A DNA stretch of 64,000 bases from an uncultured Gammaproteobacteria bacterium (GCA_964427615.1 CAYRUR010000001.1:119303-183302); one strand, 5' to 3'. Counted from the first letter of the stretch, positions 10,418-32,180 are shown. Numbers and translations: made by a program. Notes: a model not told the origin generated them from the sequence alone.

Positions 10418-10867
10418 ATGCTTTGCCCTTATTGCAGAAAAAATGGAACTGAAGTCGTTGAGACACGAATTGCCGAAGACGGAACAAATATTAGAAGAAG
10501 AAGATCATGTTCTTCCTGTGGCAAACGGTTTACTACTTATGAAAGAATTGAGAATGTAACATTAGTAGTAAAGAAAAAAGACGGAAGACGTGAGCAATTT
10601 GATAGAGATAAGTTACGAGCAGGAGTGATCCGGGCATGTGAGAAAACAAGTGTTTCAATTGATAAAATTCATGATATAGTAGATGTTATTGAAAGAGAAC
10701 TACGTAACGGTGAATCAGTAGAGGTTGAAAGTAGAAAGATAGGACAGCTTACGGCTGTTAAACTGAAAAAAGTAGATAAGGTAGCATATATTCGATTTGC
10801 AAGTGTTTTTAAGCGTTTTGTTGATTTAGACGATTTTGAGAAAGAATTAAAAAGATTATTAAAATAA
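10418..10867 (+). CDS. nrdR: Transcriptional repressor NrdR (Zn-ribbon plus ATP-cone)
   Basis: N-terminus MLCPYCRKNGTEVVETRIAEDGTNIRRRRSCSSCGKRFTTYERIE is a canonical NrdR zinc ribbon. It sits immediately upstream of an RNR gene. Confidence 0.9.
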   Translation: MLCPYCRKNGTEVVETRIAEDGTNIRRRRSCSSCGKRFTTYERIENVTLVVKKKDGRREQFDRDKLRAGVIRACEKTSVSIDKIHDIVDVIERELRNGESVEVESRKIGQLTAVKLKKVDKVAYIRFASVFKRFVDLDDFEKELKRLLK

Positions 10868-10868
10868 T

Positions 10869-13283
10869 ATGAAACTTGAAGGATTATCAGAAAAAGTATT
10901 TTTAGACAGATATGCTCTCAAAGATAAAAAGGGCAACCCTATCGAAAAAGACCCTCGCCAGATGTGGAGGAGAATTGCTAAGGCAGTAGCAGAGCAAGAA
11001 GAAGGAGAAAGTAAAAAGATTTGGGAAAAAGAATTTTATGAGGCTCTAAAGGGTTTTAAGTATGTTCCTGGCGGAAGAATCCATGCAGGCGCGGGAACTG
11101 GGTATCAAGTTACTTATTATAATTGTTTTGTAATTCCTTCTCCAAAAGATTCACGAGGTGGTATTATTGATACCCTCAAGCAAATGGTTGAAATTATGGC
11201 ACACGGTGGTGGTGTTGGTATCAACCTCTCCTCTCTTCGTCCTCGCGGTTTTCGAGTTAAGAAAGTAAATGGATTCTCCTCTGGTCCTTGTAACTGGGCA
11301 GAGCTGTTCTCTATTGCTACCAAAGATATTATTCAACAGGGTGGTACTCGTCGAGGTGCACTTATGTTAATGCTTTGGGACTGGCATCCTGATGTAGAAG
11401 AATTTATTACCGTAAAACAAGACTTACTCCGTATCAATGGAGCTAATCTTTCCGTATGTGTGTCTGATAAATTCATGGATGCAGTTGAAAAAGATGGAGA
11501 CTGGGATCTGGTTTTCCCTGATAAAGATGATCCAGATTATGATGAAAAATGGGATGGAGACCTAGAGGCTTGGAAAAAGCTTGGTAAAAAAGTAATAGTA
11601 CACAAAACAGTAAAGGCACGCAAGATATGGGATCTGATTGCTGAAGCTGCTTGGAAATCAGCAGAGCCAGGAGTAGTCTTCATGGAGCGCTACAACAAGC
11701 TATACAACAACTGGTACTGGAACAGCATCAATTGTGTAAATCCATGTGGAGAAGAAGGACTTCCACCATGGGGAGTATGTAACTTGGGTTCTATCAACCT
11801 TTCTGCTTTTGTCAAAGGGTATGAAGTAGATAAAAAAGGAGAGTTTGATTTTGAGACATTAAAGAAAGTAGTGAGAGTAGGAGTGAGATTCCAAGACAAT
11901 GTAGTGAGTATGGATCCATATATTTTTGAAGGAATTCGCAAGACACAGCTTGAGGGAGAAAGAAGAATTGGTCTTGGTACCATGGGTTTGGGAGATGCAC
12001 TAATTAAATTACACTTACGTTATGGTTCACCTGAAGCATTGGAGTTTATAGATGAAGTGTATAAGCTTATTAGAGACGAAGCATACAGAGCGTCATCTGA
12101 GATTGCCAAAGAAAAAGGAGCATTTCCAAAGTTTGATAAAGAACTTTTCCCACAAGGAGCATTTATCAAGCAACTTCCAAAAGACATCCAGAAGATGATT
12201 AAAGAGCAAGGGATTCGCAACTCGCTTCTTTTGATGCAAGCACCAACAGGGTCAATCTCTTTGATGGCTAACACCACTTCTGGTATAGAGCCGGTATATG
12301 AATTTGAATTTATCAGGAGAAGTAGAATTGGGGAGCATGTAATCAGACACCATTTGTATGATGAATGGTACAAAGTACATGATAAAGAACTGGAAGAAGG
12401 AAAAATACAAAGACCGGATTACTTTGTCTCTGCAAATGATCTTACTCCAGAAGAGCATGTGGAAACACAGGGTATCATCCAAAAATATGTGGATGCTTCT
12501 ATCTCAAAGACAGTAAATGCACCTAAGACGCATACTGTAGAGGATGTAAAAAGACTATATACCTTAGCTTACAAATTAGGTTGTAAAGGGATAACCTATA
12601 TGAGAGAAGGATCACGAGTCGGCGTATTAGAAAGAAAAGAGGACAAAAAAGAAGAAGTAAAGGAAGAAATAAAGCAATTACCACCTATTATGCGCAGGCC
12701 AATGGTCATGCAAGGAGTAACATATAAAACGCAAACACCACTGGGGAGTACCTTTATTACCATCAATGTAGACAAGGATGGTAATCCTTTTGAAGTCTTT
12801 ATTAATGCTGGGAAATCAGGTTCTGATGTCATGGCTATGGCAGAGGCATTAGGGCGCATGATTTCATTTGCTTTAAGAATGCAGGGTCCTATTGATTCAC
12901 GGGAAAAAATAGAAAGAATTATTGCCCAAATGACGGGTATCGGAGGTGCAAGAACAGTTGGCTTTGGTCCTAATAGAGTGAGATCTTTGCCTGATGCTGT
13001 AGCCAAGATCCTCGCTGATCACTTTGAATTTAAGGTAAATGGAAAAGTTACTGACGTAAAAAAGAATATAAAAGCTGATGCTATGGAGCCAGCTAGTCTT
13101 ACAAATGGACACGCAGCAGCAAATGAACATGCAGTGATGGCCTTACAACCATCTTTATTGCACGCTGAATCTGCTTCTTCTACAAATGATAGTTTTGATA
13201 TCTGTCCTGATTGTGGAACATCAGGTTTAGCACACGAAGAAGGTTGTATAAAATGTTACTCATGTGGATATTCCGCATGTTAA
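10869..13283 (+). CDS. nrdJ: Class II (adenosylcobalamin-dependent) ribonucleotide reductase with a C-terminal Zn-ribbon
   Basis: NrdJ-type N-terminus (VFLDRYALKDKKGNPIEKDPRQMWRRIAKAVA). Active-site region NPCGEEGLPPWGVCNLGSINL. C-terminal CPDCG...CIKCYSCG zinc ribbon. Length 804 aa. A start codon 2 nt after the nrdR stop indicates an operon. Confidence 0.85.
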   Translation: MKLEGLSEKVFLDRYALKDKKGNPIEKDPRQMWRRIAKAVAEQEEGESKKIWEKEFYEALKGFKYVPGGRIHAGAGTGYQVTYYNCFVIPSPKDSRGGIIDTLKQMVEIMAHGGGVGINLSSLRPRGFRVKKVNGFSSGPCNWAELFSIATKDIIQQGGTRRGALMLMLWDWHPDVEEFITVKQDLLRINGANLSVCVSDKFMDAVEKDGDWDLVFPDKDDPDYDEKWDGDLEAWKKLGKKVIVHKTVKARKIWDLIAEAAWKSAEPGVVFMERYNKLYNNWYWNSINCVNPCGEEGLPPWGVCNLGSINLSAFVKGYEVDKKGEFDFETLKKVVRVGVRFQDNVVSMDPYIFEGIRKTQLEGERRIGLGTMGLGDALIKLHLRYGSPEALEFIDEVYKLIRDEAYRASSEIAKEKGAFPKFDKELFPQGAFIKQLPKDIQKMIKEQGIRNSLLLMQAPTGSISLMANTTSGIEPVYEFEFIRRSRIGEHVIRHHLYDEWYKVHDKELEEGKIQRPDYFVSANDLTPEEHVETQGIIQKYVDASISKTVNAPKTHTVEDVKRLYTLAYKLGCKGITYMREGSRVGVLERKEDKKEEVKEEIKQLPPIMRRPMVMQGVTYKTQTPLGSTFITINVDKDGNPFEVFINAGKSGSDVMAMAEALGRMISFALRMQGPIDSREKIERIIAQMTGIGGARTVGFGPNRVRSLPDAVAKILADHFEFKVNGKVTDVKKNIKADAMEPASLTNGHAAANEHAVMALQPSLLHAESASSTNDSFDICPDCGTSGLAHEEGCIKCYSCGYSAC

Positions 13284-13289
13284 AAACAG

Positions 13290-13478
13290 TTAGTTTGTTG
13301 GTGTATGAAAAGTTAATAGTGAGTATTAGGTAAGAAGGGTGAAAATCCCTCACAGAGCCGCTACTGTTATAGTCAGAAAACGATACTCATGAGAAAGCCC
13401 GAGCTTGGCATTAAATATGGAGTCCTCTCGGGTGATCTTCTTTACTGAACAGGTAAAGAGAGAAACGAAGAGGATTTT
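13290..13478 (+). promoter_or_regulatory. Cobalamin (B12) riboswitch-like leader, copy 1
   Basis: Contains AAGGGUGAAAAUCCCUCACAGAGCCGCUACUGUUAUAG, which matches the conserved GGUGAAAAUCC...GC.G..CCGC.ACUGU core of Firmicutes B12 riboswitches. A B12-box-like AAAGCCCGAGCUUGGC follows, then a hairpin plus U-run before the ATG at 13482. Confidence 0.6.
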
Positions 13479-13481
13479 TTT

Positions 13482-13883
13482 ATGGCTACACTACTTAAAA
13501 ATAAAAAAGCTTTTTTAATACTCATCGGAATTACATTCGTTATTGTTGCTCTTGTTTTTGTTTTTCCAAGTATTCCTGCACAAAAGAGTGAAACAGAAAC
13601 TGTTATTACGCCAACAGTGGCTATTTCCAATCAAACTCAAAACATAGATTCTTTTACGTATCAAGGTGAAGAAGGTAAAAGTGCATTCGAGATCTTAGAA
13701 GTAAAAACAAAAGTAGAGATAGATAAAGTAGGTCTTGTTTCTGCTATCAATGGAAGAAAAGCAGATAACAGCAAAAGAGAGTTTTGGGCATTTTATGTCA
13801 ATGGCAAGTTAGCAGAAGTTGGTCCCAAAGATTACATTACGAAATCAACGGACAAAATAGAATGGAAAATAGAGACTTACTAA
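13482..13883 (+). CDS. Membrane-anchored DUF4430-like protein (putative transcobalamin-like cobalamin-binding protein)
   Basis: N-terminal transmembrane anchor. C-terminal region with the FWAFYVNGKLAEVGPKDY...IEWKIE pattern typical of DUF4430. First gene after the B12 riboswitch. Confidence 0.45.
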   Translation: MATLLKNKKAFLILIGITFVIVALVFVFPSIPAQKSETETVITPTVAISNQTQNIDSFTYQGEEGKSAFEILEVKTKVEIDKVGLVSAINGRKADNSKREFWAFYVNGKLAEVGPKDYITKSTDKIEWKIETY

Positions 13884-13884
13884 T

Positions 13885-14421
13885 ATGAAAAAATCCCACT
13901 TAGTAACTGCAACGCTGATTATTTTCTGTGGAGCACTTTTCCGATTTCTCCCTCATCCACCAAATTTTGCGCCTATTGCAGCTATGGCTCTTTTTGCAGG
14001 AGCGTATATGGACAAAAAATATGCTTTCTTTATTCCTTTTATAGCAATGTTTGTCTCAGATATTTTTCTGGGTTTTCATAATACGATGCCTTTTGTCTAT
14101 GTCAGCTTTTTTCTCGTAGGAGTTTTGGGAATGATGCTTAAAAAGCACTCTAAACCTCAAATGGTTATAGCAGCGGCTTTTGTGTCTTCCCTGTTATTTT
14201 TTGTGATTACCAATATTGGAGTATGGCTGAGTTCAGGGCTCTATGAGCAAAATACAAAAGGATTAGCGGAAGCATTTGTCCTTGCCATTCCTTTTTTCAA
14301 AAACACGCTGATGGGAGACTTGTTGTTTACTAGTGCTTTTTTTGCTCTGTTTGAATTTTTCAAAGCAACTTTGTTGAAAGAAAGGTTGTTGCATGAAAAA
14401 GCTTCTCAACCCAAAAGCTAA
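13885..14421 (+). CDS. Small polytopic membrane protein, ECF-transporter S-component-like (putative cobalamin or precursor uptake)
   Basis: 178 aa with about 5 predicted transmembrane helices. Start codon 2 nt after the previous stop. The context is a B12 riboswitch followed by PduO. Confidence 0.4.
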   Translation: MKKSHLVTATLIIFCGALFRFLPHPPNFAPIAAMALFAGAYMDKKYAFFIPFIAMFVSDIFLGFHNTMPFVYVSFFLVGVLGMMLKKHSKPQMVIAAAFVSSLLFFVITNIGVWLSSGLYEQNTKGLAEAFVLAIPFFKNTLMGDLLFTSAFFALFEFFKATLLKERLLHEKASQPKS

Positions 14422-14444
14422 ACAGTATTTTTACTATTTGCTAT

Positions 14445-15017
14445 TTGGTTTTTAATATTTCTATTATGCCTATTTATACAAAAACTGGAGACAAAGGAAA
14501 AACAGCATTACGGACTAATGAGCGGGTATGGAAAGATTCAGTACGCGTTGAAAGTTATGGAACAGTTGATGAGCTTAATGCGTATTTAGGGGTAGTGCTT
14601 TCTTATATTGATACAGATGCAAAAAAAGAATTGCGTTATGTAGCAGATCTAGTGGTTACAGTACAAAATGATTTGTTTTTTATTGGTTCTTATATTGCCA
14701 ACCCTGGTGAGAAGCGGGACCTGACAGTGCTTAACAAGCATATTACGTATTTTGAGGATGAGATAGATGGTATGACAGAGCAAATGCCAGAACTTAAAAA
14801 TTTTATTCTTCCAGGAGGAGGAAAGGTAGGAGCATCCTTGCAGTACGCACGTACTATTTCCAGAAGAGCGGAGAGAAAATTAGTTTCTTTGCACAAGGCA
14901 GAAGGGGTTGAAAAAGAAATTTTGCAGTATATAAATAGACTTTCTGACTTATTATTTACGTTGTCTCGCTTTGCCAATTACGTAGAAAAAAAGAAAGAGA
15001 TAATTTGGTCTTTGTAA
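14445..15017 (+). CDS. pduO: ATP:cob(I)alamin adenosyltransferase, PduO type
   Basis: N-terminus MPIYTKTGDKGKTALRTNERVWKDSVRVESYGTVDELNAYLG is the PduO-type ATR signature. Length about 190 aa. Confidence 0.85.
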   Translation: MVFNISIMPIYTKTGDKGKTALRTNERVWKDSVRVESYGTVDELNAYLGVVLSYIDTDAKKELRYVADLVVTVQNDLFFIGSYIANPGEKRDLTVLNKHITYFEDEIDGMTEQMPELKNFILPGGGKVGASLQYARTISRRAERKLVSLHKAEGVEKEILQYINRLSDLLFTLSRFANYVEKKKEIIWSL

Positions 15018-15256
15018 CGGGTGAATGAGGTGTAAATCCTCAGCTATGCCGTAGCTGTGATCTTAGGTAAATACTAAGAAAGTCAGATCCCCGTCTGTTT
15101 CAATATTTAATTTGAGAACAGGAAAAGTCTTTCGAGTCCATGTACCATGCGGTACAGGACCATGCGCTGAATAGTGCATGGCAAGAGCAATTTTGTATCC
15201 TTATCCTGCCTTCTCGAAATTCTGTTACAGAACAAAATGAGAAGGTTTTTTTATTG
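15018..15256 (+). promoter_or_regulatory. Cobalamin riboswitch-like leader, copy 2, with a rho-independent terminator as expression platform
   Basis: GAGGUGUAAAUCCUCAGCUAUGCCGUAGCUGUGAUCUUAGG parallels the copy-1 core (GGUG.AAAUCC...GC...CCG.AGCUGU). A B12-box-like AAGUCAGAUCCCCGUCUG follows. The terminator ccttctc...gagaagg plus TTTTTTT lies at 15209-15252, just before the ATG at 15265. Confidence 0.5.
15209..15252 (+). terminator. Intrinsic terminator (riboswitch expression platform)
   Basis: Stem CCTTCTC/GAGAAGG enclosing the sub-hairpin ttctgttacagaa, followed by a 7-T run. Confidence 0.55.
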
Positions 15257-15264
15257 TTATTGTT

Positions 15265-16665
15265 ATGGATCTTGAATCAAGAACAGTTACTTATCAAATA
15301 CAAAGAAATGAAGCTTTTTATGCTGATAATTCTTCTTTAGAAGGAGAATTTCATGATTTACAAAGAGAGTGGATTCGTGAAGAGGAAGATGAATGGTACT
15401 TGTTGCCTGGAACAGGATTTAATGTGAAGCTTCAAGTTGAGTTATTACGCAAGGATCTTGAAGAAGGATTAGAAAAAGGAGAATCGTATGAGGACATTAT
15501 TGAGAAGTGGCTCCAAAAAACAGAACAGGACATTCATGGGTTTAAAATTGAGTATTTGTGTGAGGGCTTGTTATTTCCTATTATGTTGGACAAAGAAGTA
15601 GTAAACGCAGAAGAAAGAATTGTTGCGCCTTTATATGGAGGAAAACTGTTTGTAGACACAGTGAGTGAGCAAGAGCGTTTGGGAAGTGTAAAAAAAGCTA
15701 TCGTGGGTGATCCAGAAACAGGCAAAGAAGGAATAGAACACTTTTTACTCACCGCTCATCCTGGATCTGTTTCAGTTATGACCAGTCCTCCTGGTTGGAG
15801 TGGTTTTGAAGGAATTACGTACCCTGACTCTCAGACTTATATTTGGCAGATACAGGAAGACAGGTCTATTAGAGGGTTTACGGTGCGTACTGATATGGAG
15901 GTAAAAGAAAACATAAAGTTATTAGAAACACTAGGTGAAGATATGAGTGCTATGAAAGGCAAAAATGAACAAGAAAGGTTGGCAGGAATTGTCGGAACAC
16001 CGGTGTTTTTAAGGGGAAATGATGAAAAGCAGTGGAGTATCGAAGATATTGTGAATGCTATTAGATCAGTAAAACACACAAAATCAGCGTATAAAGAAAG
16101 AGGTTTTGATGAAATTTATGATCAGCTTGAAAATCCTGAGTCTTTATGGACGCTTGATGAAACAACACGTAAGCTCGTTGCAGAGTTTAGAAGATATGTG
16201 TGGGATCAAGTATATAATGGTGAAGGAGATAGAGAGAAAAACATTCAAAGAGCATTGGGAATGACTGTTCTGGAACTGGCTAAGAGAATACGTAGACCTA
16301 AGAGAGAAGAGATAGCATACGACGATGAGTGGGTAGGTGAGGAATATAGTTTAGGAGGTGGATTAGTGTCAGGAGATCGGTATCGTGATGTTTTATCTGA
16401 TGTGCAACAATTAGGAGGATGTAATGGCGGAGGAGGTGAGGGTGAAAGTATGCCTGATAGCTATATTGTTAACTCTATTACTCCTCGAATTGGTGTGAGA
16501 AATGAAGTTGATTACTCGAAAGATCCAAATTTATGTAGATGTAGTAATAGCCTTCCTCATTTTCACTGTCCTGGTAAAAAAGAAGGAAAGCCTTGTAAAG
16601 AAAAAATTATCTATGGAAAAGGAATTAAAAAGTGTCCTAGTTGTGGAGAAGGAAAAAAATGTTAA
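15265..16665 (+). CDS. Hypothetical acidic cytoplasmic protein with a Cys-rich C-terminus; putatively B12-riboswitch-controlled
   Basis: 466-aa ORF with no transmembrane segments and no recognisable enzyme motif. C-terminal CRCSNSLPHFHCPGKKEGKPCKEKIIYGKGIKKCPSCGEGKKC suggests metal binding. Confidence 0.55.
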   Translation: MDLESRTVTYQIQRNEAFYADNSSLEGEFHDLQREWIREEEDEWYLLPGTGFNVKLQVELLRKDLEEGLEKGESYEDIIEKWLQKTEQDIHGFKIEYLCEGLLFPIMLDKEVVNAEERIVAPLYGGKLFVDTVSEQERLGSVKKAIVGDPETGKEGIEHFLLTAHPGSVSVMTSPPGWSGFEGITYPDSQTYIWQIQEDRSIRGFTVRTDMEVKENIKLLETLGEDMSAMKGKNEQERLAGIVGTPVFLRGNDEKQWSIEDIVNAIRSVKHTKSAYKERGFDEIYDQLENPESLWTLDETTRKLVAEFRRYVWDQVYNGEGDREKNIQRALGMTVLELAKRIRRPKREEIAYDDEWVGEEYSLGGGLVSGDRYRDVLSDVQQLGGCNGGGGEGESMPDSYIVNSITPRIGVRNEVDYSKDPNLCRCSNSLPHFHCPGKKEGKPCKEKIIYGKGIKKCPSCGEGKKC

Positions 16666-16814
16666 ACAAAAATTCGCAAGAGAATTGTGATGTCTGTTTT
16701 AAAATCAAATGTCGCGGATGTGGGTGGGAGCCAACAGAGGAAGAGGTAGCAAAAATCCAAGCAGGAGAACTGAGAACTTGTCCTTTGTGTGGTTGGCAGC
16801 CAGGAGAAAAATAA
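16659..16814 (+). CDS. Small (51 aa) zinc-ribbon protein, start overlapping the previous stop (ATGTTAA)
   Basis: MLNKNSQENCDVCFKIKCRGCGWEPTEEEVAKIQAGELRTCPLCGWQPGEK has a CxxC...CxxC...CPLCG arrangement. It is absent from the ORF track because it is under 60 aa. Confidence 0.4.
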   Translation: MLNKNSQENCDVCFKIKCRGCGWEPTEEEVAKIQAGELRTCPLCGWQPGEK

Positions 16815-17713: not shown

Positions 17714-18460
17714 TTACTCGTCGTTGAGTTGGATGCTGAGTAGGGCGGGATTGAGAACACCGCCGTTCTCGTTAGCTAGCTCGCCCTCGTTCCCGATTTG
17801 GGTGTCGAGGTTGTGCCAACGACGGAGCTGTTCCCCGTGTTTCCAGCAACGAGCGAGCATTGTGACAGCAGCGCCGAACATGAAGCCTGTGATGCCTTCA
17901 AGGTCCGCTTCGTGCGATGTAGCGGAAGCTACCTCTTCGAGGGTCTTCCCGTTAGATATCTCGACCTGCATGAGTCGCGCCCATCGTTGAGCGTATGTGA
18001 TAACGGCACCGCCGTAAGGATCTCGGTTGGCCAGCATGGCTTCTTCCCAAGCATCTGGGTTAGACTCCTCCATAGGAGGAGCACCTTTGAGCTTCGCCTC
18101 CAGAGCATTGCGCTTGGCTTTAGCTTGCGCCTCGTACTCAGCTTGCAGTTCCTGGCGTCTGCGCTCGTTCTTGGCTTCGACCTGGTTGTCATTCTCCTTC
18201 TCCTCGTCGGTAAGGACAAGGTTTGGGTAAGGACCGACGTTGGGGTCGATATAATGATGGAGCGCCCGATGCCAATCCCGAAAGATAAGATCAGGACTAG
18301 AGTCCTTGCGAACACTAACCCTTACCTCATTGAAGTCGAACGTAATGAGGCACCCATCTTCCTCGGCTGATAGAGCGATAGCTTCAACGATGGTATTGCG
18401 GATATGTGCTCCTGCACCAACCTCAAAGACAATTTCCTTCTTTCGCCAAAAGTTACTCAT
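17714..18460 (-). CDS. Hypothetical protein encoded on a compositionally foreign (GC-rich) segment
   Basis: 248-aa ORF in a stretch visibly far more G+C-rich than the rest of the window. GGAGG RBS 8 nt upstream of the ATG. Acidic, Ala/Glu-rich helical protein of unknown family. Spurious antisense ORFs in this stretch fit high GC. Confidence 0.55.
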   Translation of the reverse strand: MSNFWRKKEIVFEVGAGAHIRNTIVEAIALSAEEDGCLITFDFNEVRVSVRKDSSPDLIFRDWHRALHHYIDPNVGPYPNLVLTDEEKENDNQVEAKNERRRQELQAEYEAQAKAKRNALEAKLKGAPPMEESNPDAWEEAMLANRDPYGGAVITYAQRWARLMQVEISNGKTLEEVASATSHEADLEGITGFMFGAAVTMLARCWKHGEQLRRWHNLDTQIGNEGELANENGGVLNPALLSIQLNDE

Positions 18461-18836: not shown

Positions 18837-19073
18837 TTATATCAGCCGTTTGTTACGAAATGCAAAGCCAGAACCTGTTTTTAAGTAGTTTTCAAATGAA
18901 AGTGCTTTCTTTTTAGTAGAAAATGCAGCGTAAAAAATGAGAGTAATAGGACGAAGGTTTTTAGTTGATTCTACTTTACCATTTTCGTGAGCCAAAATTC
19001 GTTGTTTCAGGTTATCTGAAAAGCCATGATAGTAAAAATTATCACTTAGTTTGAGAATGTACACATAGTACAT
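18837..19073 (-). CDS. GIY-YIG nuclease-family small protein (UPF0213/YhbQ-like)
   Basis: MYYVYILKLSDNFYYHGFSDNLKQRILAHENG matches the GIY-YIG signature (YxVYIL...G.YYxG.T.NL.RR...H). Length 78 aa. Confidence 0.75.
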   Translation of the reverse strand: MYYVYILKLSDNFYYHGFSDNLKQRILAHENGKVESTKNLRPITLIFYAAFSTKKKALSFENYLKTGSGFAFRNKRLI

Positions 19074-26258: not shown

Positions 26259-28658
26259 TTATGATCTTTTCATGCCTGGTGGAAGTTCTCCTGAATCATT
26301 ATCTTCTAAGGCTTCAAACATGCGGGAGCGTCTTGCAATATCTGCTCCGACTAGCTCTTTTGGTTTGCCATATTTAAGGCGGGAGAGTTCCCTGACTAGT
26401 TCTGCAATGCGTGGATTATCAAGTTTTTTCTCTTCTTCCATGTTTCTTGTGAAATCAACAGAAAATGGTAGAGCTGGTTCACCATCAATCAATGTTCTCA
26501 TATAGGCATGGTATCGTTCTATATTGATAAGGTCTGCTTCTGAAAAAGTAGGCTGGAATTCATGCTGTAAGTAGTTGGCATCAGTTACTCCTACGCGGAA
26601 GGAAACGATTGTTCCTACATTACCAAAGATAGCATTTTTTACTTCTTCTTCCATTTGTCCGATAAATTGGTTGGCTACAATCAGATTAAGACGGTATTTT
26701 CTAGCCTCAGAAAGAATTTGGGCAAAGTCAGGGGTGGCAAAGTTTTGGAACTCATCTACATATAGATAAAAATCTTTTCTTTGGCTCATAGGTATATCTT
26801 GTCGAGACATAGCAGCAATTAAAATACGAGGTACTAAAATAAGTCCTAAGAAGCTGGAGTTTTCTTCTCCAATTTTTCCTTTGGCAAGATTGACTAACAG
26901 AATTTTTTGCTGATCCATGACTTCACGGAAATTAAATGCACTTTGGCCTTGTCCTATGATATTACGCATCATGGTATTGGTAACAAATCGTCCGAATTTG
27001 GAAGTAATGTAATCCAGTGTTTCTGATTTATGGAAGTCGTTCGTTTGGGCAATTTGATCTGTCCAGTAACGCCTGATAATTGGGTCTTGAACTTTTGGCA
27101 ACAGTTCTTGTACAAAAGAAGAGTCAGTGAGGGCACGCATTACTTCTACCAAAGTATTCCCCTTTTCTGCCATAACGGTTAACATTGCGTTGCGTACTGC
27201 GTGTTCAAATCGAGGACCCACGATACCGGTCTTATGAGGATCAAAAAGCTTGTACATCAAGCCAATAATAGAGGATACGACAAAGTGTTTTTGCTCTTCA
27301 TCTGTTGCCTCAAGCATATTCAGTCCCATAGGTCTTTGCGTATCAGAAGGGTCAAAAAGAATAACATCCTCAGCTCTTTCCGGTGGAATACGCAGGAGCA
27401 CGTCATCTATCAAGTCTCCGTGTGGGTCAATAGCAGCTATTCCTTTGCCATTTTGGATATCCTGCAGGATCATAGATTTTAACAGTTCTGATTTTCCGAC
27501 ACCTGTTTTTCCAATAATATACATATGTCTTCTCCTGTCATCATCACTCATGTAAATTTGCCTTTCCATGCCTCTATAAGTGCTTTTTCCAATATAGAGT
27601 CCTGAAGTAGGGATGTTAGCAGGTGCAGGTGCACTTCTGGCTGCCAGCCAGTGAATCTGAGAGTTTTCAACGCTTTTATTAGGCAAATGGAAGAGGGTGG
27701 CAAGCTCTTCAGTATTCAGTACGGAACCAGCTCCTACCAGTGGAAGATAGCGGTAAATAAAATCAATCATAAATAACCCTTTGAAAAAACGGATTTTATC
27801 TCTCTCAAATGAGTTATAAGAAGCAAATTGGGCAAAGGCACTTTCAATGTTGGATAAGTGCATATCAGCAGCATCTTTGGTAGAAGAGGAGACTACAATA
27901 CGAATATAGGTGTTAAATCCAGGTTTGGTGATTTTCTGCTCAATTGCTTCTAGCTCTTTTTGATCTGTTGAGTATTTGGCAGTTTCAGGGTCCGCCTCTT
28001 TTTTCTTCGTACTTGAGATGTAGGCTCTCCCTGCTTTTCTCCAGCCAGAACCAGCAGGTGTTATGACGAATTGAATAACAGCTCCTTCTCCTTCCTGCAT
28101 CTTACTTAAGGTGCTGGTAATCATAGAAAGAGGGTCTACTGCTAGATCTTTGTAAGTCTTCAAAGGTTTATAAGAGGCTTCTTCTAATTTCAAACCAGCA
28201 TAGGCTACAGCCCCATTCTCACTAAAAATATTATATTCTTCAACTTCTTTGATAAGCGCATCAGGGTAGGAACCATGAATTTGTTTTTCTACCATGTCCT
28301 TGATATGGCGTGGGACACTAACATGAAAGCGAATATCACCAGGTCGTGCTACTATCTCAAAAGCAATACTGTCAGGAATTTTGAAAAAGGCAAGCCTTCC
28401 TTTTGCGGTCTTTAAAGAGGTAAGACCCGCAAATAGCTGCTCTGCTGCATCAATTTTGATTTCATTTTCTCGGGGCAAGGCGATTTCTAAGAGAACTGAG
28501 TTGAGTGATTTTTTATGCCTTGCATTATTTTTGCGCCAAAGCCCAAATAAAAAAGCAAGACCTACCAGAGAAAACACAACTAAAGAAGAGATAAAAATCC
28601 CGAGTAAAAAGAGTAGTAAAAAGTCGATTATGCCGGTTCCAAACGCATCAATTTGCAT
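26259..28658 (-). CDS. Type IV secretion/conjugation-type ATPase (VirD4/TraG coupling-protein-like or VirB4-like) with an N-terminal transmembrane anchor
   Basis: N-terminal transmembrane helices. Walker A IIGKTGVGKS is followed ~25 aa later by AAIDPHGDL, the DP[KHN]GD motif of TrwB/VirD4/VirB4 ATPases. Walker B FYLYVDEFQNF. Length 799 aa. Confidence 0.65.
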   Translation of the reverse strand: MQIDAFGTGIIDFLLLFLLGIFISSLVVFSLVGLAFLFGLWRKNNARHKKSLNSVLLEIALPRENEIKIDAAEQLFAGLTSLKTAKGRLAFFKIPDSIAFEIVARPGDIRFHVSVPRHIKDMVEKQIHGSYPDALIKEVEEYNIFSENGAVAYAGLKLEEASYKPLKTYKDLAVDPLSMITSTLSKMQEGEGAVIQFVITPAGSGWRKAGRAYISSTKKKEADPETAKYSTDQKELEAIEQKITKPGFNTYIRIVVSSSTKDAADMHLSNIESAFAQFASYNSFERDKIRFFKGLFMIDFIYRYLPLVGAGSVLNTEELATLFHLPNKSVENSQIHWLAARSAPAPANIPTSGLYIGKSTYRGMERQIYMSDDDRRRHMYIIGKTGVGKSELLKSMILQDIQNGKGIAAIDPHGDLIDDVLLRIPPERAEDVILFDPSDTQRPMGLNMLEATDEEQKHFVVSSIIGLMYKLFDPHKTGIVGPRFEHAVRNAMLTVMAEKGNTLVEVMRALTDSSFVQELLPKVQDPIIRRYWTDQIAQTNDFHKSETLDYITSKFGRFVTNTMMRNIIGQGQSAFNFREVMDQQKILLVNLAKGKIGEENSSFLGLILVPRILIAAMSRQDIPMSQRKDFYLYVDEFQNFATPDFAQILSEARKYRLNLIVANQFIGQMEEEVKNAIFGNVGTIVSFRVGVTDANYLQHEFQPTFSEADLINIERYHAYMRTLIDGEPALPFSVDFTRNMEEEKKLDNPRIAELVRELSRLKYGKPKELVGADIARRSRMFEALEDNDSGELPPGMKRS

Positions 28659-29238: not shown

Positions 29239-29328
29239 GGAGGAGTCGCATAGCTGGTCCATTGCGGGGGTTTGCTAAACCCCTGAGCCTTTTGGCTCGC
29301 GCAGGTTCGAATCCTGTCTCCTCCGCCA
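29239..29328 (+). tRNA. tRNA-Ser (anticodon GCU) with long variable arm, CCA encoded
   Basis: GGAGGAG...anticodon stem GGGGU/ACCCC with loop UUGCUAA...variable arm UGAGCCUUUUGGCUCGC...GCAGG-UUCGAAU-CCUGU-CUCCUCC-G-CCA. Confidence 0.8.
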
Positions 29329-29373: not shown

Positions 29374-30147
29374 TTATTTAGATGAAGCGTTAAAAAGTTC
29401 TATAAGCTTAGTTTGTTCTTTCATTTTGAGCAAATCATTCATATTATTAATAATACTTCTTTGCTGTAGTTTTGGATTACTAAAGCCTATTTTTTTACAA
29501 AAAATATCTATATCTTTATCATTACTAATATAAAGGGAGTTTTTTAATGAAAGGGTAGGTCTGATCCCAAGGCTCAAAAGAGAATCTCTAACAAACAAAA
29601 TAAGTTCTTTATTATAATTTCTAAAATTTAACTGTTTGTAGAGAGAGGTTCCTTTCTTACTTCTGTAATCTTTGAAGGAAATTGATCCTTCAGTATCAAA
29701 AAGTCCTCTTATGCAAGCACTTCTGTATTCTTCTTTAGAATAAATCCAAGAGGGCACTGTTTTTCTTTTGGGTATTATTCCCATATTAAGTAAAAATTCT
29801 GCAACTATTTTTGAGCTTATTCTTATATCTGTCGCATTTTCTTTTTTTCTCTTTATGAGAGAAATTTTAATTTCCGGAAATAATGTACTTATTAAATTTA
29901 CAACATAAGGGATATACTGCTTGTCTGCTTCTGAATTAAGGGTTATCGCAATTTGGTAAGGAGAAACGTACCCATCTCCTAAACAAATACCAACAAGCTC
30001 AGCTAAACGAGTACTCACACTAGGAAGTAAAACATTTTTTAACCCATTTTTATTAAAGTTATTCGCACACTTTAGTGAACAAAACTTGTATTTCCTTTCT
30101 CGCTTTCTGAATTCTTTCTTGCAAAAAGTACATTGTCCTAGTATCAT
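29374..30147 (-). CDS. Free-standing double-motif LAGLIDADG homing-endonuclease-like protein with an N-terminal Cys4 zinc finger
   Basis: Two LAGLIDADG-type motifs (LVGICLGDGYVS and IRGLFDTEGSIS) about 100 aa apart. N-terminal CTFC...CSLKC. Confidence 0.7.
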   Translation of the reverse strand: MILGQCTFCKKEFRKRERKYKFCSLKCANNFNKNGLKNVLLPSVSTRLAELVGICLGDGYVSPYQIAITLNSEADKQYIPYVVNLISTLFPEIKISLIKRKKENATDIRISSKIVAEFLLNMGIIPKRKTVPSWIYSKEEYRSACIRGLFDTEGSISFKDYRSKKGTSLYKQLNFRNYNKELILFVRDSLLSLGIRPTLSLKNSLYISNDKDIDIFCKKIGFSNPKLQQRSIINNMNDLLKMKEQTKLIELFNASSK

Positions 30148-30218: not shown

Positions 30219-30305
30219 GGAGAGGTGCTGGAGTGGACGATCAGGAAGGTCTTGAAAACCTTTGTGGGTGCAAGCTCACCGTGGGTTCGAATCCCACCCT
30301 CTCCG
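30219..30305 (+). tRNA. tRNA-Ser (anticodon UGA) with long variable arm
   Basis: GGAGAGG...anticodon stem AAGGU/ACCUU with loop CUUGAAA...variable arm UGUGGGUGCAAGCUCACCG...GUGGG-UUCGAAU-CCCAC-CCUCUCC-G. Confidence 0.8.
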
Positions 30306-31343: not shown

Positions 31344-32180
31344 TTGATGCAGAGACCAATATTTGTGATTAAAAAGTCAGGTGACAGAGAACCATTTTCA
31401 GAGGAGAAGGTGATGCGCTCTATGCAACGGGCAGGGTTGCCGAGCCATTTATACGATACTGTTCTTGCCCACATTAAAAGTAAGCTCCATCCTGACATTG
31501 AAACTGCAGAGATTTTTGCACATATCCAGGAGTATCTGGAAAAAGAGGATAAGCCCTCCTCTCTTCGTTTTAATCTCAAAAGAGCTATTTTTGAATTAGG
31601 ACCTACAGGATTTCCTTTTGAGGTGTATATTAGCAAAGTATTTACTTCACAAGGATATAACTGTGAGGTGGGACTCATATTGCAAGGAGACTGTGTAAAG
31701 CATGAGGTGGACTTGTTGATAGAAAAGGATGGAAACAAAGAGATTATGGAAGCAAAATTTCATAACCAGCAAGGGACCAAAACTGATGTGCAAGTAGCAC
31801 TCTACACTCACGCTCGATTTTTAGATTTAAAAAATCAACATGATTTGTCCGGTGTATGGATTGTTACTAATACAAAGCTAACGGAGGATGCTACGCAATA
31901 TGCTCGATGTAAAGGGGTGAAAATGATTGGTTGGAATTATCCTGCAAAAGGGAATTTACAAGACTTTGTGGAAAACCCACAGATGTATCCAATAACGATT
32001 CTGGACAGTTTGACATTGGATGAAAAAAGAAAGTTATTGGAAGAAGATATTGTGTTATGTAAGGACTTGGCAGAAGCGCCTGATTATATTTTATATGAGA
32101 AACTGTTGCTGGATAAAAAAAGAATGGAATATGCCAAAGAACATGCTCGAATGATCTACGCTACTCCTCAACTCGCCTGA
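31344..32180 (+). CDS. ATP-cone domain protein fused to a restriction-endonuclease-like (Mrr-type) C-terminal domain
   Basis: The N-terminal ~90 aa (IFVIKKSGDREPFSEEKVMRSMQRAGL...) look like an ATP-cone. The C-terminal region has a PD-(D/E)xK-like core (VDLLIEKDGNKEIMEAKFH...). Domain calls were made by eye only. Confidence 0.45.
   Translation: MMQRPIFVIKKSGDREPFSEEKVMRSMQRAGLPSHLYDTVLAHIKSKLHPDIETAEIFAHIQEYLEKEDKPSSLRFNLKRAIFELGPTGFPFEVYISKVFTSQGYNCEVGLILQGDCVKHEVDLLIEKDGNKEIMEAKFHNQQGTKTDVQVALYTHARFLDLKNQHDLSGVWIVTNTKLTEDATQYARCKGVKMIGWNYPAKGNLQDFVENPQMYPITILDSLTLDEKRKLLEEDIVLCKDLAEAPDYILYEKLLLDKKRMEYAKEHARMIYATPQLA

Follow-up and report, generated by a model that had tools for sequence, protein, structure and literature searches.

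The classical btuB, btuFCD and cbl/cob operons are controlled by a cobalamin-clan aptamer joined to a terminator or to a hairpin that sequesters the ribosome-binding site, which together act as an OFF switch. BtuM from Thiobacillus denitrificans is a solitary cobalamin transporter resembling the S-components of energy-coupling factor (ECF) systems, present in organisms without an ECF module, and Cys80 in its loop L3 is an essential cobalt ligand (PMC6072759). ECF-CbrT of Lactobacillus delbrueckii (PDB 6FNP), an ECF transporter specific for cobalamin, works together with EcfAA'T. From our analysis of a 64-kb stretch of DNA (CAYRUR010000001.1:119303-183302, hereafter the window; 37.5% GC, with ~50 open reading frames (ORFs) considered), filed under an uncultured Gammaproteobacteria bacterium, we describe a cassette in which nrdR and the ribonucleotide reductase (RNR) gene nrdJ are followed by a leader RNA, genes for a DUF4430 protein, a DUF6580 membrane protein and the adenosyltransferase PduO, a second leader RNA, and the gene of an unannotated protein of 466 aa, X466. 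We consider it probable that this conserved cassette of the candidate phyla radiation (CPR) couples an adenosylcobalamin (AdoCbl)-dependent RNR to the acquisition and activation of its cofactor, the functions of the genes being predicted from sequence. Riboswitch-controlled B12 salvage beside a B12-dependent enzyme is of a kind already known. New are the component set, with DUF4430 and DUF6580 in place of BtuFCD or ECF-CbrT, the placing of a serial riboswitch at the stop codon of pduO, and the X466 family.

The cassette and its conserved gene order

The features of the cassette are given below.

10418-10867, + strand: nrdR, RNR-gene repressor with ATP-cone and Zn ribbon (TIGR00244, 184.9 bits, cut-off 124.65; Pfam Zn_ribbon_NrdR and ATP-cone)
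10869-13283, + strand: nrdJ, class II (adenosylcobalamin-dependent) RNR (TIGR02504, 574.6 bits against a cut-off of 399.95)
13320-13389, + strand: riboswitch 1 aptamer, minimal cobalamin type without the P6 extension (RF01689 match)
13397-13433, + strand: riboswitch 1 antiterminator, GCCCGAG (13397-13403) pairing with CUCGGGU (13427-13433); contains AAGCCCGAG
13419-13481, + strand: riboswitch 1 terminator, hairpin 13419-13478 and a tract of seven uridines (U7) at 13475-13481 that ends right at the AUG
13482-13883, + strand: DUF4430 protein, 133 aa, with an N-terminal membrane anchor or signal (PF14478, 53.7 bits against 23.8)
13885-14421, + strand: DUF6580 membrane protein, 178 aa (PF20221, 166.6 bits against a cut-off of 27)
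14466-15017, + strand: pduO, PduO-type ATP:cob(I)alamin adenosyltransferase (TIGR00636, 186.7 bits against 108.45; PF01923, 189.3 bits)
15017-15094, + strand: riboswitch 2 aptamer core, ACGGG (15017-15021) pairing with CCCGU (15090-15094)
15130-15219, + strand: riboswitch 2 antiterminator, UUUCGAG (15130-15136) pairing with CUCGAAA (15213-15219)
15208-15252, + strand: riboswitch 2 intrinsic terminator, stem 15208-15246 and U7 15246-15252
15265-16665, + strand: X466, cytoplasmic protein of 466 aa from an unannotated CPR family, behind riboswitch 2
16659-16814, + strand: zinc-ribbon ORF of 51 aa, overlapping the X466 stop by 7 nt and called in the public assembly

The five genes nrdR, nrdJ, DUF4430, DUF6580 and pduO all lie on the plus strand and all exceed curated hidden Markov model (HMM) cut-offs, and the order that a sequence-only reading had proposed for them, with a leader ahead of the DUF4430 gene, is borne out by the ORF map (8.5-18 kb) together with these models. 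Its calls of a class II RNR and a PduO-type adenosyltransferase also stand, the former by an equivalog model above the trusted cut-off (TIGR02504) and the latter by an equivalog-domain model above its cut-off (TIGR00636). The idea of a unit that scavenges, adenosylates and uses cobalamin is supported by the cobalamin-clan match of the leader, by the classification of the small proteins and by the lack of an adjacent energising module. Its end had been set at 15017 and has to be moved, as the unit also takes in a second riboswitch and a sixth conserved gene (15265-16665). NrdJ, which requires AdoCbl, carries the Pfam domains Ribonuc_red_lgC, Ribonuc_red_lgN and TSCPD and a Cys-rich C-terminal Zn-finger tail (CPDC...CIKCYSCGYSAC), and nrdJ is the only RNR gene seen in the cassettes examined. 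The longest pduO ORF opens at TTG 14445; the likely start is ATG 14466, the gene call of the public assembly is 183 aa long, and PduO homologues begin MPIYTKTGDKG.

The same gene order is found in many CPR genomes, which argues for a functional unit. Among the related loci (numbered with the letter L), the order nrdR-nrdJ-DUF4430-DUF6580-pduO is present in L021, L022, L024, L025 and L026, and the order nrdR-nrdJ-riboswitch-pduO-X466 in L003, L004, L018, L019, L020 and also L023, the last having a second riboswitch between pduO and X466. The full arrangement of the window, including the second riboswitch, is seen in L021 (57% identity) and L022 (28% identity). Related loci for X466 were retrieved with a 12-sequence alignment, narrower than the divergent 23-sequence alignment A1, and wherever the upstream DNA could be read (~17 distinct loci, some with leaders that Rfam missed because of insertions) the gene is preceded by a cobalamin riboswitch. 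Usually it comes right after pduO (with a gap of 4 nt in L019 and L020), and a riboswitch lies directly upstream of it in L002, L014, L015, L016 and L017. Riboswitch 1 begins within a few tens of bases of the nrdJ stop in the window, L003, L004 and L018. With no room for a strong promoter or terminator before riboswitch 1, read-through from nrdJ is probable, and with the riboswitch so close behind the nrdJ stop, read-through at low B12 would be the simplest model. A promoter scan found 17 candidates against 21 expected, no better than chance, and a by-eye look for NrdR boxes upstream of nrdR gave no convincing match to the known palindrome.

The nearest relatives of the window are metagenome-assembled genomes of Curtissbacteria and other Patescibacteria; the host is a CPR/Patescibacteria bacterium with a tiny genome, and the cassette is of the Microgenomates/Curtissbacteria type. 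L003 (CAZXND010000001.1) is likewise labelled 'uncultured Gammaproteobacteria bacterium', and its order nrdR-nrdJ-riboswitch-pduO-X466-comF-tmRNA matches that of the Curtissbacteria/Patescibacteria loci, so the label is probably wrong. Two mobile elements were encountered in the related loci: the nrdJ of L019 (1389-5015) encodes 1208 aa with an intein bearing a LAGLIDADG endonuclease domain, and L015 has a group I intron (RF00028, 110 bits) at 2554-2785, ~0.9 kb downstream of its X466 homologue. Literature searches for DUF6580, and for Patescibacteria/CPR combined with cobalamin, riboswitch, adenosyltransferase or RNR, gave no paper.

Two leader RNAs and their expression platforms

In a window-wide Rfam scan at gathering thresholds, the sole cobalamin match (14975-15112) lies downstream of pduO and not in the gap between nrdJ and the DUF4430 gene. 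Leader 1 is missing from that scan because its score is 1.4 bits under gathering; in a permissive scan of 13100-15400 (2.3 kb) it matches RF01689 (AdoCbl-II) with 35.1 bits (E-value 5.6e-6). This match is not due to chance, since the core motif GTGWAAATCC-N8-GCCGYWRCTGT is confined to exactly two sites in the 64 kb, namely the two leaders (0 in 100 shuffles), and since orthologous leaders pass the threshold with 53.0 (L003), 49.7 (L002), 42.9 (L015) and 39.8 bits (L018). The P1 helix is formed by UGAGUA (13320-13325) and UACUCA (13384-13389), and the leader follows the cobalamin-riboswitch pattern in its GGUGxAAxUCC loop, GCCGCxACUGU, B12 box AGYCMG, B12-related genes downstream and expression platform. 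The RNA strings quoted in the sequence-only reading are indeed present (GGUGAAAAUCC at 13338-13348, GCCGCUACUGU at 13357-13367 and AAGCCCGAG at 13395-13403), and its cobalamin-riboswitch-like leader before DUF4430 is recovered as a cobalamin-clan (CL00101) match, in the form of RF01689 and below gathering. The B12 box had been misplaced: AAGCCCGAG, situated 3' of the aptamer, forms the conserved strand of the antiterminator, and in the cmscan alignment the B12-box equivalent is AGUCAGAAAAC (13371-13381). A covariance model of our own was attempted, and MAFFT with RNAalifold on six aptamers recovered two hairpins only because P1 was misaligned by bulges; none was built, and the aptamer reading thus leans on Rfam and motif inspection.

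Riboswitch 2 scores 36.0 bits against RF00174 (gathering 31.5; E-value 1.8e-5 over the whole window), has a short P6 hairpin (15062-15078) and the B12 box AAGUCAGAUCCCCG, and the pduO stop codon falls within the 5' end of its match. Orthologues of riboswitch 2 are present in L021, L022 (46.0 bits) and L023 (35.0 bits), each time in the interval that separates pduO from the X466 homologue. The ~90-nt spacer at 15110-15200, enclosed by the antiterminator pairing, contains three well-formed hairpins and is without an equivalent in leader 1 and most of the related leaders.

We then laid out 14 leaders from the window and the related loci side by side. Their common layout consists of an aptamer, a conserved YCCCGAGCAGGA-like element, a GC-rich hairpin with CUCGG in its 5' arm, and U7, and in several of the 14 an AUG follows directly after U7. 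The antiterminator element is kept 3' of the aptamer in all related leaders; its CGAG and the 5' arm of the hairpin are complementary, with flanking bases that covary as CCC:GGG, UUU:AAA and UUCC:GGAA (at least 10 leaders). The pairing GCCCGAG:CUCGGGU is shared by leader 1 of the window and leader 1 of L021. UUUCGAG:CUCGAAA belongs to leader 2 of the window, in which the seven complementary bases covary with those of the other leaders, UUCCGAG:CUCGGAA to leader 2 of L021, GUCUUCCGAG:CUCGGAAGGC to leader 2 of L023 and UUUUCCCGAG:CUCGGGAGGA to the leader of L004. The terminator of riboswitch 1 folds with -23.2 kcal/mol (z-score -3.18; 0 of 200 shuffles equally stable) and holds a Shine-Dalgarno-like GAAGAGGA in its 3' arm, and the fold of 15110-15258 in riboswitch 2 has a z-score of -5.06. 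Hairpin and U7 are similarly arranged in the related leaders. We read these platforms as predicted terminator/antiterminator OFF switches, the hairpin of leader 1 also burying the Shine-Dalgarno sequence, and the leader RNAs would accordingly act as cobalamin-responsive switches.

The leaders resemble those of the classical operons in combining a cobalamin-clan aptamer with a terminator or sequestering hairpin, and depart from them in three respects: the riboswitch stands directly behind the gene of a B12-consuming enzyme, the expression platform has the lineage-specific YCCCGAGCAGGA element, and, unlike in classical or tandem riboswitches, a second copy lies inside the operon at the pduO stop, the last gene being gated serially. 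The leaders of L001, L009, L010 and L020 and leader 1 of L022 were missed by Rfam because they are interrupted by insertions, while the core, the CGAGCAGGA element and the terminator are still present. Large hairpin insertions were observed in the GGUG...UCC loop or between that loop and GCCGCAACGGU (L020 5260-5370, L017 3700-3900, L001 5575-5770 / L009 35-230). With aptamers pushed below detection by insertions and both core and platform intact, Rfam-based surveys would under-count the riboswitches of CPR bacteria.

The DUF4430 and DUF6580 membrane pair

The DUF4430 and DUF6580 genes always adjoin, 1-15 nt apart (L021, L022, L024-L026). The former had been read as encoding a membrane-anchored DUF4430 protein, in agreement with PF14478 above gathering and an N-terminal hydrophobic anchor. 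DUF4430 is the Pfam family of the beta domain of transcobalamin, haptocorrin and intrinsic factor, with 3U7Z as a bacterial structure. A profile of the DUF4430 proteins from six cassettes aligned with the C-terminal beta domain of transcobalamin-1 (4kki_A, residues 380-430, E-value 0.008) and with the TC2 beta domain (residues 364-411, E-value 0.2), which fits the published assignment of DUF4430 as the C-terminal domain of TCN-type binders (PMC4350170). In the eukaryotic carriers an alpha domain completes the B12 pocket, whereas the cassette protein has the beta domain alone on a membrane anchor. The homologues retain the N-terminal transmembrane anchor, and some have long Pro/Thr linkers inserted, as would be expected of a surface-tethered binder. 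We regard the DUF4430 protein as a candidate extracytoplasmic corrinoid binder.

The DUF6580 protein has more than 1,250 homologues, all unnamed. An AlphaFold model made from 25 sequences is confident (predicted local distance difference test (pLDDT) 92.9) and has the six-helix S-component fold, with the solitary BtuM as the closest structure. The ECF-S-like character proposed for this protein was thus right as to fold, and two details were not: its Pfam family is DUF6580 and not ECF_trnsprt (PF12822, 24.9 bits, below the gathering score of 30.7), and it has six to seven helices rather than five. On this model the DUF6580 protein is a candidate corrinoid transporter. Its likeness to BtuM (PDB 6FFV/8OVV) lies in the S-component fold, with no detectable sequence homology. 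Where BtuM has Cys80 in loop L3, the 25 DUF6580 sequences have invariant His65 in the GFH motif of loop 3 and His24 in the PHxxN motif of loop 1. BtuM is proteobacterial and stands behind BtuB, whereas in the CPR cell the partner of DUF6580 is a DUF4430 protein. Of the PDB sequences, the DUF6580 profile touches ECF-CbrT alone (6fnp_A, E-value 0.047, below significance); the two have motifs in helices 1-3 in common and presumably the same substrate, and the Pfam family of CbrT is a different one. DUF6580 would at most work like BtuM or CbrT and is a member of neither family.

No ABC ATPase, EcfT, BtuCDF or cob/cbi gene was found among the ~50 ORFs of the window, and the +/-5-8 kb around nine related cassettes likewise yielded neither an ABC ATPase nor EcfT; the absence of an adjacent ECF energising module, asserted at the outset, is confirmed for the 64 kb. 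The genes of group II S-components normally lie apart from those of the ECF module, and DUF6580 could on that account be an ordinary CbrT-like S-component docking on a shared EcfAA'T encoded elsewhere, its uptake being ATP-driven and not BtuM-like. Dynamic association of S-components with the ECF module has been described (PMC6072759). The weak link to CbrT with the PN..P and S[DN]IFLGF motifs in common, and the sub-threshold Pfam matches to ECF_trnsprt and ECF-ribofla_trS, are in keeping with such docking. We nevertheless judge it unlikely in view of the lack of ABC ATPase and EcfT genes in the window and in the flanks of the nine cassettes, of BtuM being the closest structure, and of the constant DUF4430 partner, which is foreign to known ECF systems. 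Import of a substrate other than complete cobalamin, such as cobinamide, a different cobamide or cobalt, is very doubtful for this pair, as no genes for cobamide assembly or remodelling were found in the window or in the related cassettes, PduO and NrdJ, the cassette's sole consumers, require a complete corrinoid, and DUF4430 is related to binders of complete cobalamin.

X466, the surroundings and the proposed working of the cassette

X466 combines an alpha/beta core with an invariant PGCNGGG loop (C386) and, at its C-terminus, a C4 zinc ribbon, and it gave no Pfam, NCBIfam or PDB-sequence match. A word-indexed search gave 83 homologues and an exhaustive HMM search 385 clusters at 50% identity, all homologues being 360-620 aa long; no domain fusions were seen among the longest, and cluster look-ups returned no names. 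Invariant in alignment A1 are G51, F52, E96, E137, R138, G140, P175, G177, G180, Q190, G385, C386 and G390, of which G385, C386 and G390 lie in the PGCNGGG loop, with the C4 zinc ribbon after it. De-novo TIM-barrel matches to the X466 profile were rejected as repeat-summing artefacts. The X466 AUG (15265) has no Shine-Dalgarno sequence at normal spacing, and an in-frame AUU (15253) directly after U7 takes the position of the AUG in homologous leaders (e.g., L021: GAGGAGUUUUUUUAUG); translation may start at AUU 15253, or at the AUG without a Shine-Dalgarno sequence. The 51-aa ORF that follows shows homology to the C-terminal tail of P0024, one of the X466 homologues (residues 387-455, BLASTP E-value 2e-9), and is therefore a second copy of that tail standing on its own; in L021 (46 aa) and L022 (67 aa, DUF5522) X466 is likewise followed by a small ORF.

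Its constant place behind cobalamin riboswitches makes X466 a putative member of the cobalamin regulon. Judging from regulation and gene order, the most likely reading, which we put forward tentatively, is a PduO-coupled factor for cobalamin processing, reduction or escort. PduO-type adenosyltransferases likewise stand beside a conserved partner gene in the pairs of PduO with the PduS reductase and of human MMAB with MMACHC/MMADHC, although X466 resembles PduS, MMACHC and MMADHC neither in sequence nor in fold. The invariant loop Cys recalls the Co-S chemistry described for MMADHC and for BtuM (PMC6072759), which is functional speculation. A more ambitious version, possible and held with less assurance, is that X466 represents a new cobalamin-handling class with an unseen fold, a PduO partner that would capture, reduce or dealkylate the corrinoid, perhaps by Co-S chemistry at the PGCNGGG Cys, and would thereby drive ATPase-less uptake through DUF4430/DUF6580, the whole being a complete CPR-specific B12 acquisition pathway.

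B12 represses metE or nrdDG/nrdEF in other bacteria, and X466 could conceivably be a B12-independent substitute for a B12-dependent function, such as an alternative route to deoxyribonucleotides, that is repressed by B12. Riboswitch repression suits such a backup enzyme as well as it suits a salvage gene; in the window, L021, L022 and L023 an additional riboswitch is dedicated to X466, which in L002, L015 and L016 is alone behind a riboswitch, and its Cys-rich Zn-ribbon tail recalls the C-terminal tail of NrdJ. X466 is however unlike any RNR, glycyl-radical enzyme or MetE in sequence or fold, and it is coupled to pduO in one riboswitch-controlled operon in at least six loci, a pattern typical of pathway partners, so that we find the substitute improbable. 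Still more improbable is a ligand-sensing regulator that would combine a PAS-like small-molecule core with a nucleic-acid-binding zinc ribbon and tune the expression of nrdJ or of the salvage genes. A role for X466 outside all of these readings was weighed as a further rival.

Several observations weigh against the cassette working as we propose. Leader 1 falls short of the RF01689 gathering score of 36.5, and most of its inner P2 helix is missing. A search of the aptamer loop (xGCCG) and the CGAGCAGGA element for L5-L13 kissing complementarity gave nothing convincing and conserved, nor was a route identified by which the ligand-bound aptamer would capture the antiterminator strand. The 25 DUF6580 sequences share no conserved Cys and so are without the essential cobalt-ligating Cys of BtuM, and the BtuM chains in PDB were not matched by DUF6580 phmmer or profile searches at E-values up to 10. 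The inspected part of the genome amounts to 64 kb, and genes for BtuCDF or an ECF module may lie outside it. No homologue of X466 has a known function, and comparison with PDB structure libraries gave no significant fold match, so that the role assigned to X466 is taken from regulation and gene order only. Cassettes without X466 exist (L024-L026; in L025 and L026 the translations of the genes after pduO were inspected and bear no evident X466 resemblance), hence X466 is not essential for salvage, and a distant homologue, P0065, sits among genes resembling those of type IV secretion systems (T4SS).

Beyond the cassette, the window carries further genes. T4SS-like genes flank the cassette (716-2534 and 26259-28658, both - strand), as they also do in L021, L022, L025 and L026; among their products are two T4SS_pilin proteins and a coupling protein of the TrwB/TraG type with DUF8128. 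An ORF of 248 aa at 17714-18460 (- strand), whose product has a Tad4 'type I Thoeris inhibitor' domain (97 bits), is situated in a segment with 57% GC (background ~37%) and is adjoined by a 78-aa GIY-YIG ORF at 18837-19073 (- strand). In L003 the comF-like gene and the tmRNA gene are immediate neighbours; in the window these two ORFs stand between them and are therefore probably a foreign (phage-derived) insertion beside the tmRNA. At 29374-30147 (- strand) a 257-aa LAGLIDADG ORF lies between two 87-nt tRNA genes of the plus strand (29239-29325 and 30219-30305), and at 31344-32180 (+ strand) a 278-aa protein joins an ATP-cone domain, allosteric in RNRs and NrdR, to a Mrr-type restriction endonuclease domain.

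In the mechanism we propose, nrdR and nrdJ would be transcribed first, and at low B12 RNA polymerase would read through from nrdJ into the salvage genes. When cobalamin is scarce, GCCCGAG would pair with the 5' arm of the terminator, and the polymerase would enter DUF4430, DUF6580 and pduO. The DUF4430 protein, a surface-tethered binder of the transcobalamin beta-domain type, would capture the corrinoid outside the cell; the DUF6580 protein, with its BtuM/ECF S-component fold, would move it across the membrane, possibly without an ATPase module; and PduO would adenosylate cob(I)alamin to give AdoCbl for NrdJ. When cobalamin is plentiful, the aptamer would fold, and the terminator would form and bury the ribosome-binding site, turning the operon off. 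Riboswitch 2, of the same architecture, would gate X466 and the small Zn-ribbon ORF a second time, so that X466 would need both switches open. As a cytoplasmic partner of PduO, X466 may then process, reduce or escort cobalamin, perhaps through the PGCNGGG Cys and the Zn-ribbon tail.

CPR/Patescibacteria are thought to live on metabolites from other cells, and to our knowledge their acquisition of cofactors is largely unknown. If no other RNR is encoded elsewhere, DNA synthesis would depend on scavenged B12. DUF4430 and DUF6580 make up a candidate two-part corrinoid importer that may work without ATP and that, if true, would give a function to two DUFs, and the serial double-riboswitch design within one operon is a testable candidate. 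X466 stands for a sizeable dark-matter family (~385 clusters at 50% identity), and its invariable control by B12 riboswitches together with its coupling to PduO makes it a strong lead for a missing step of bacterial B12 trafficking.

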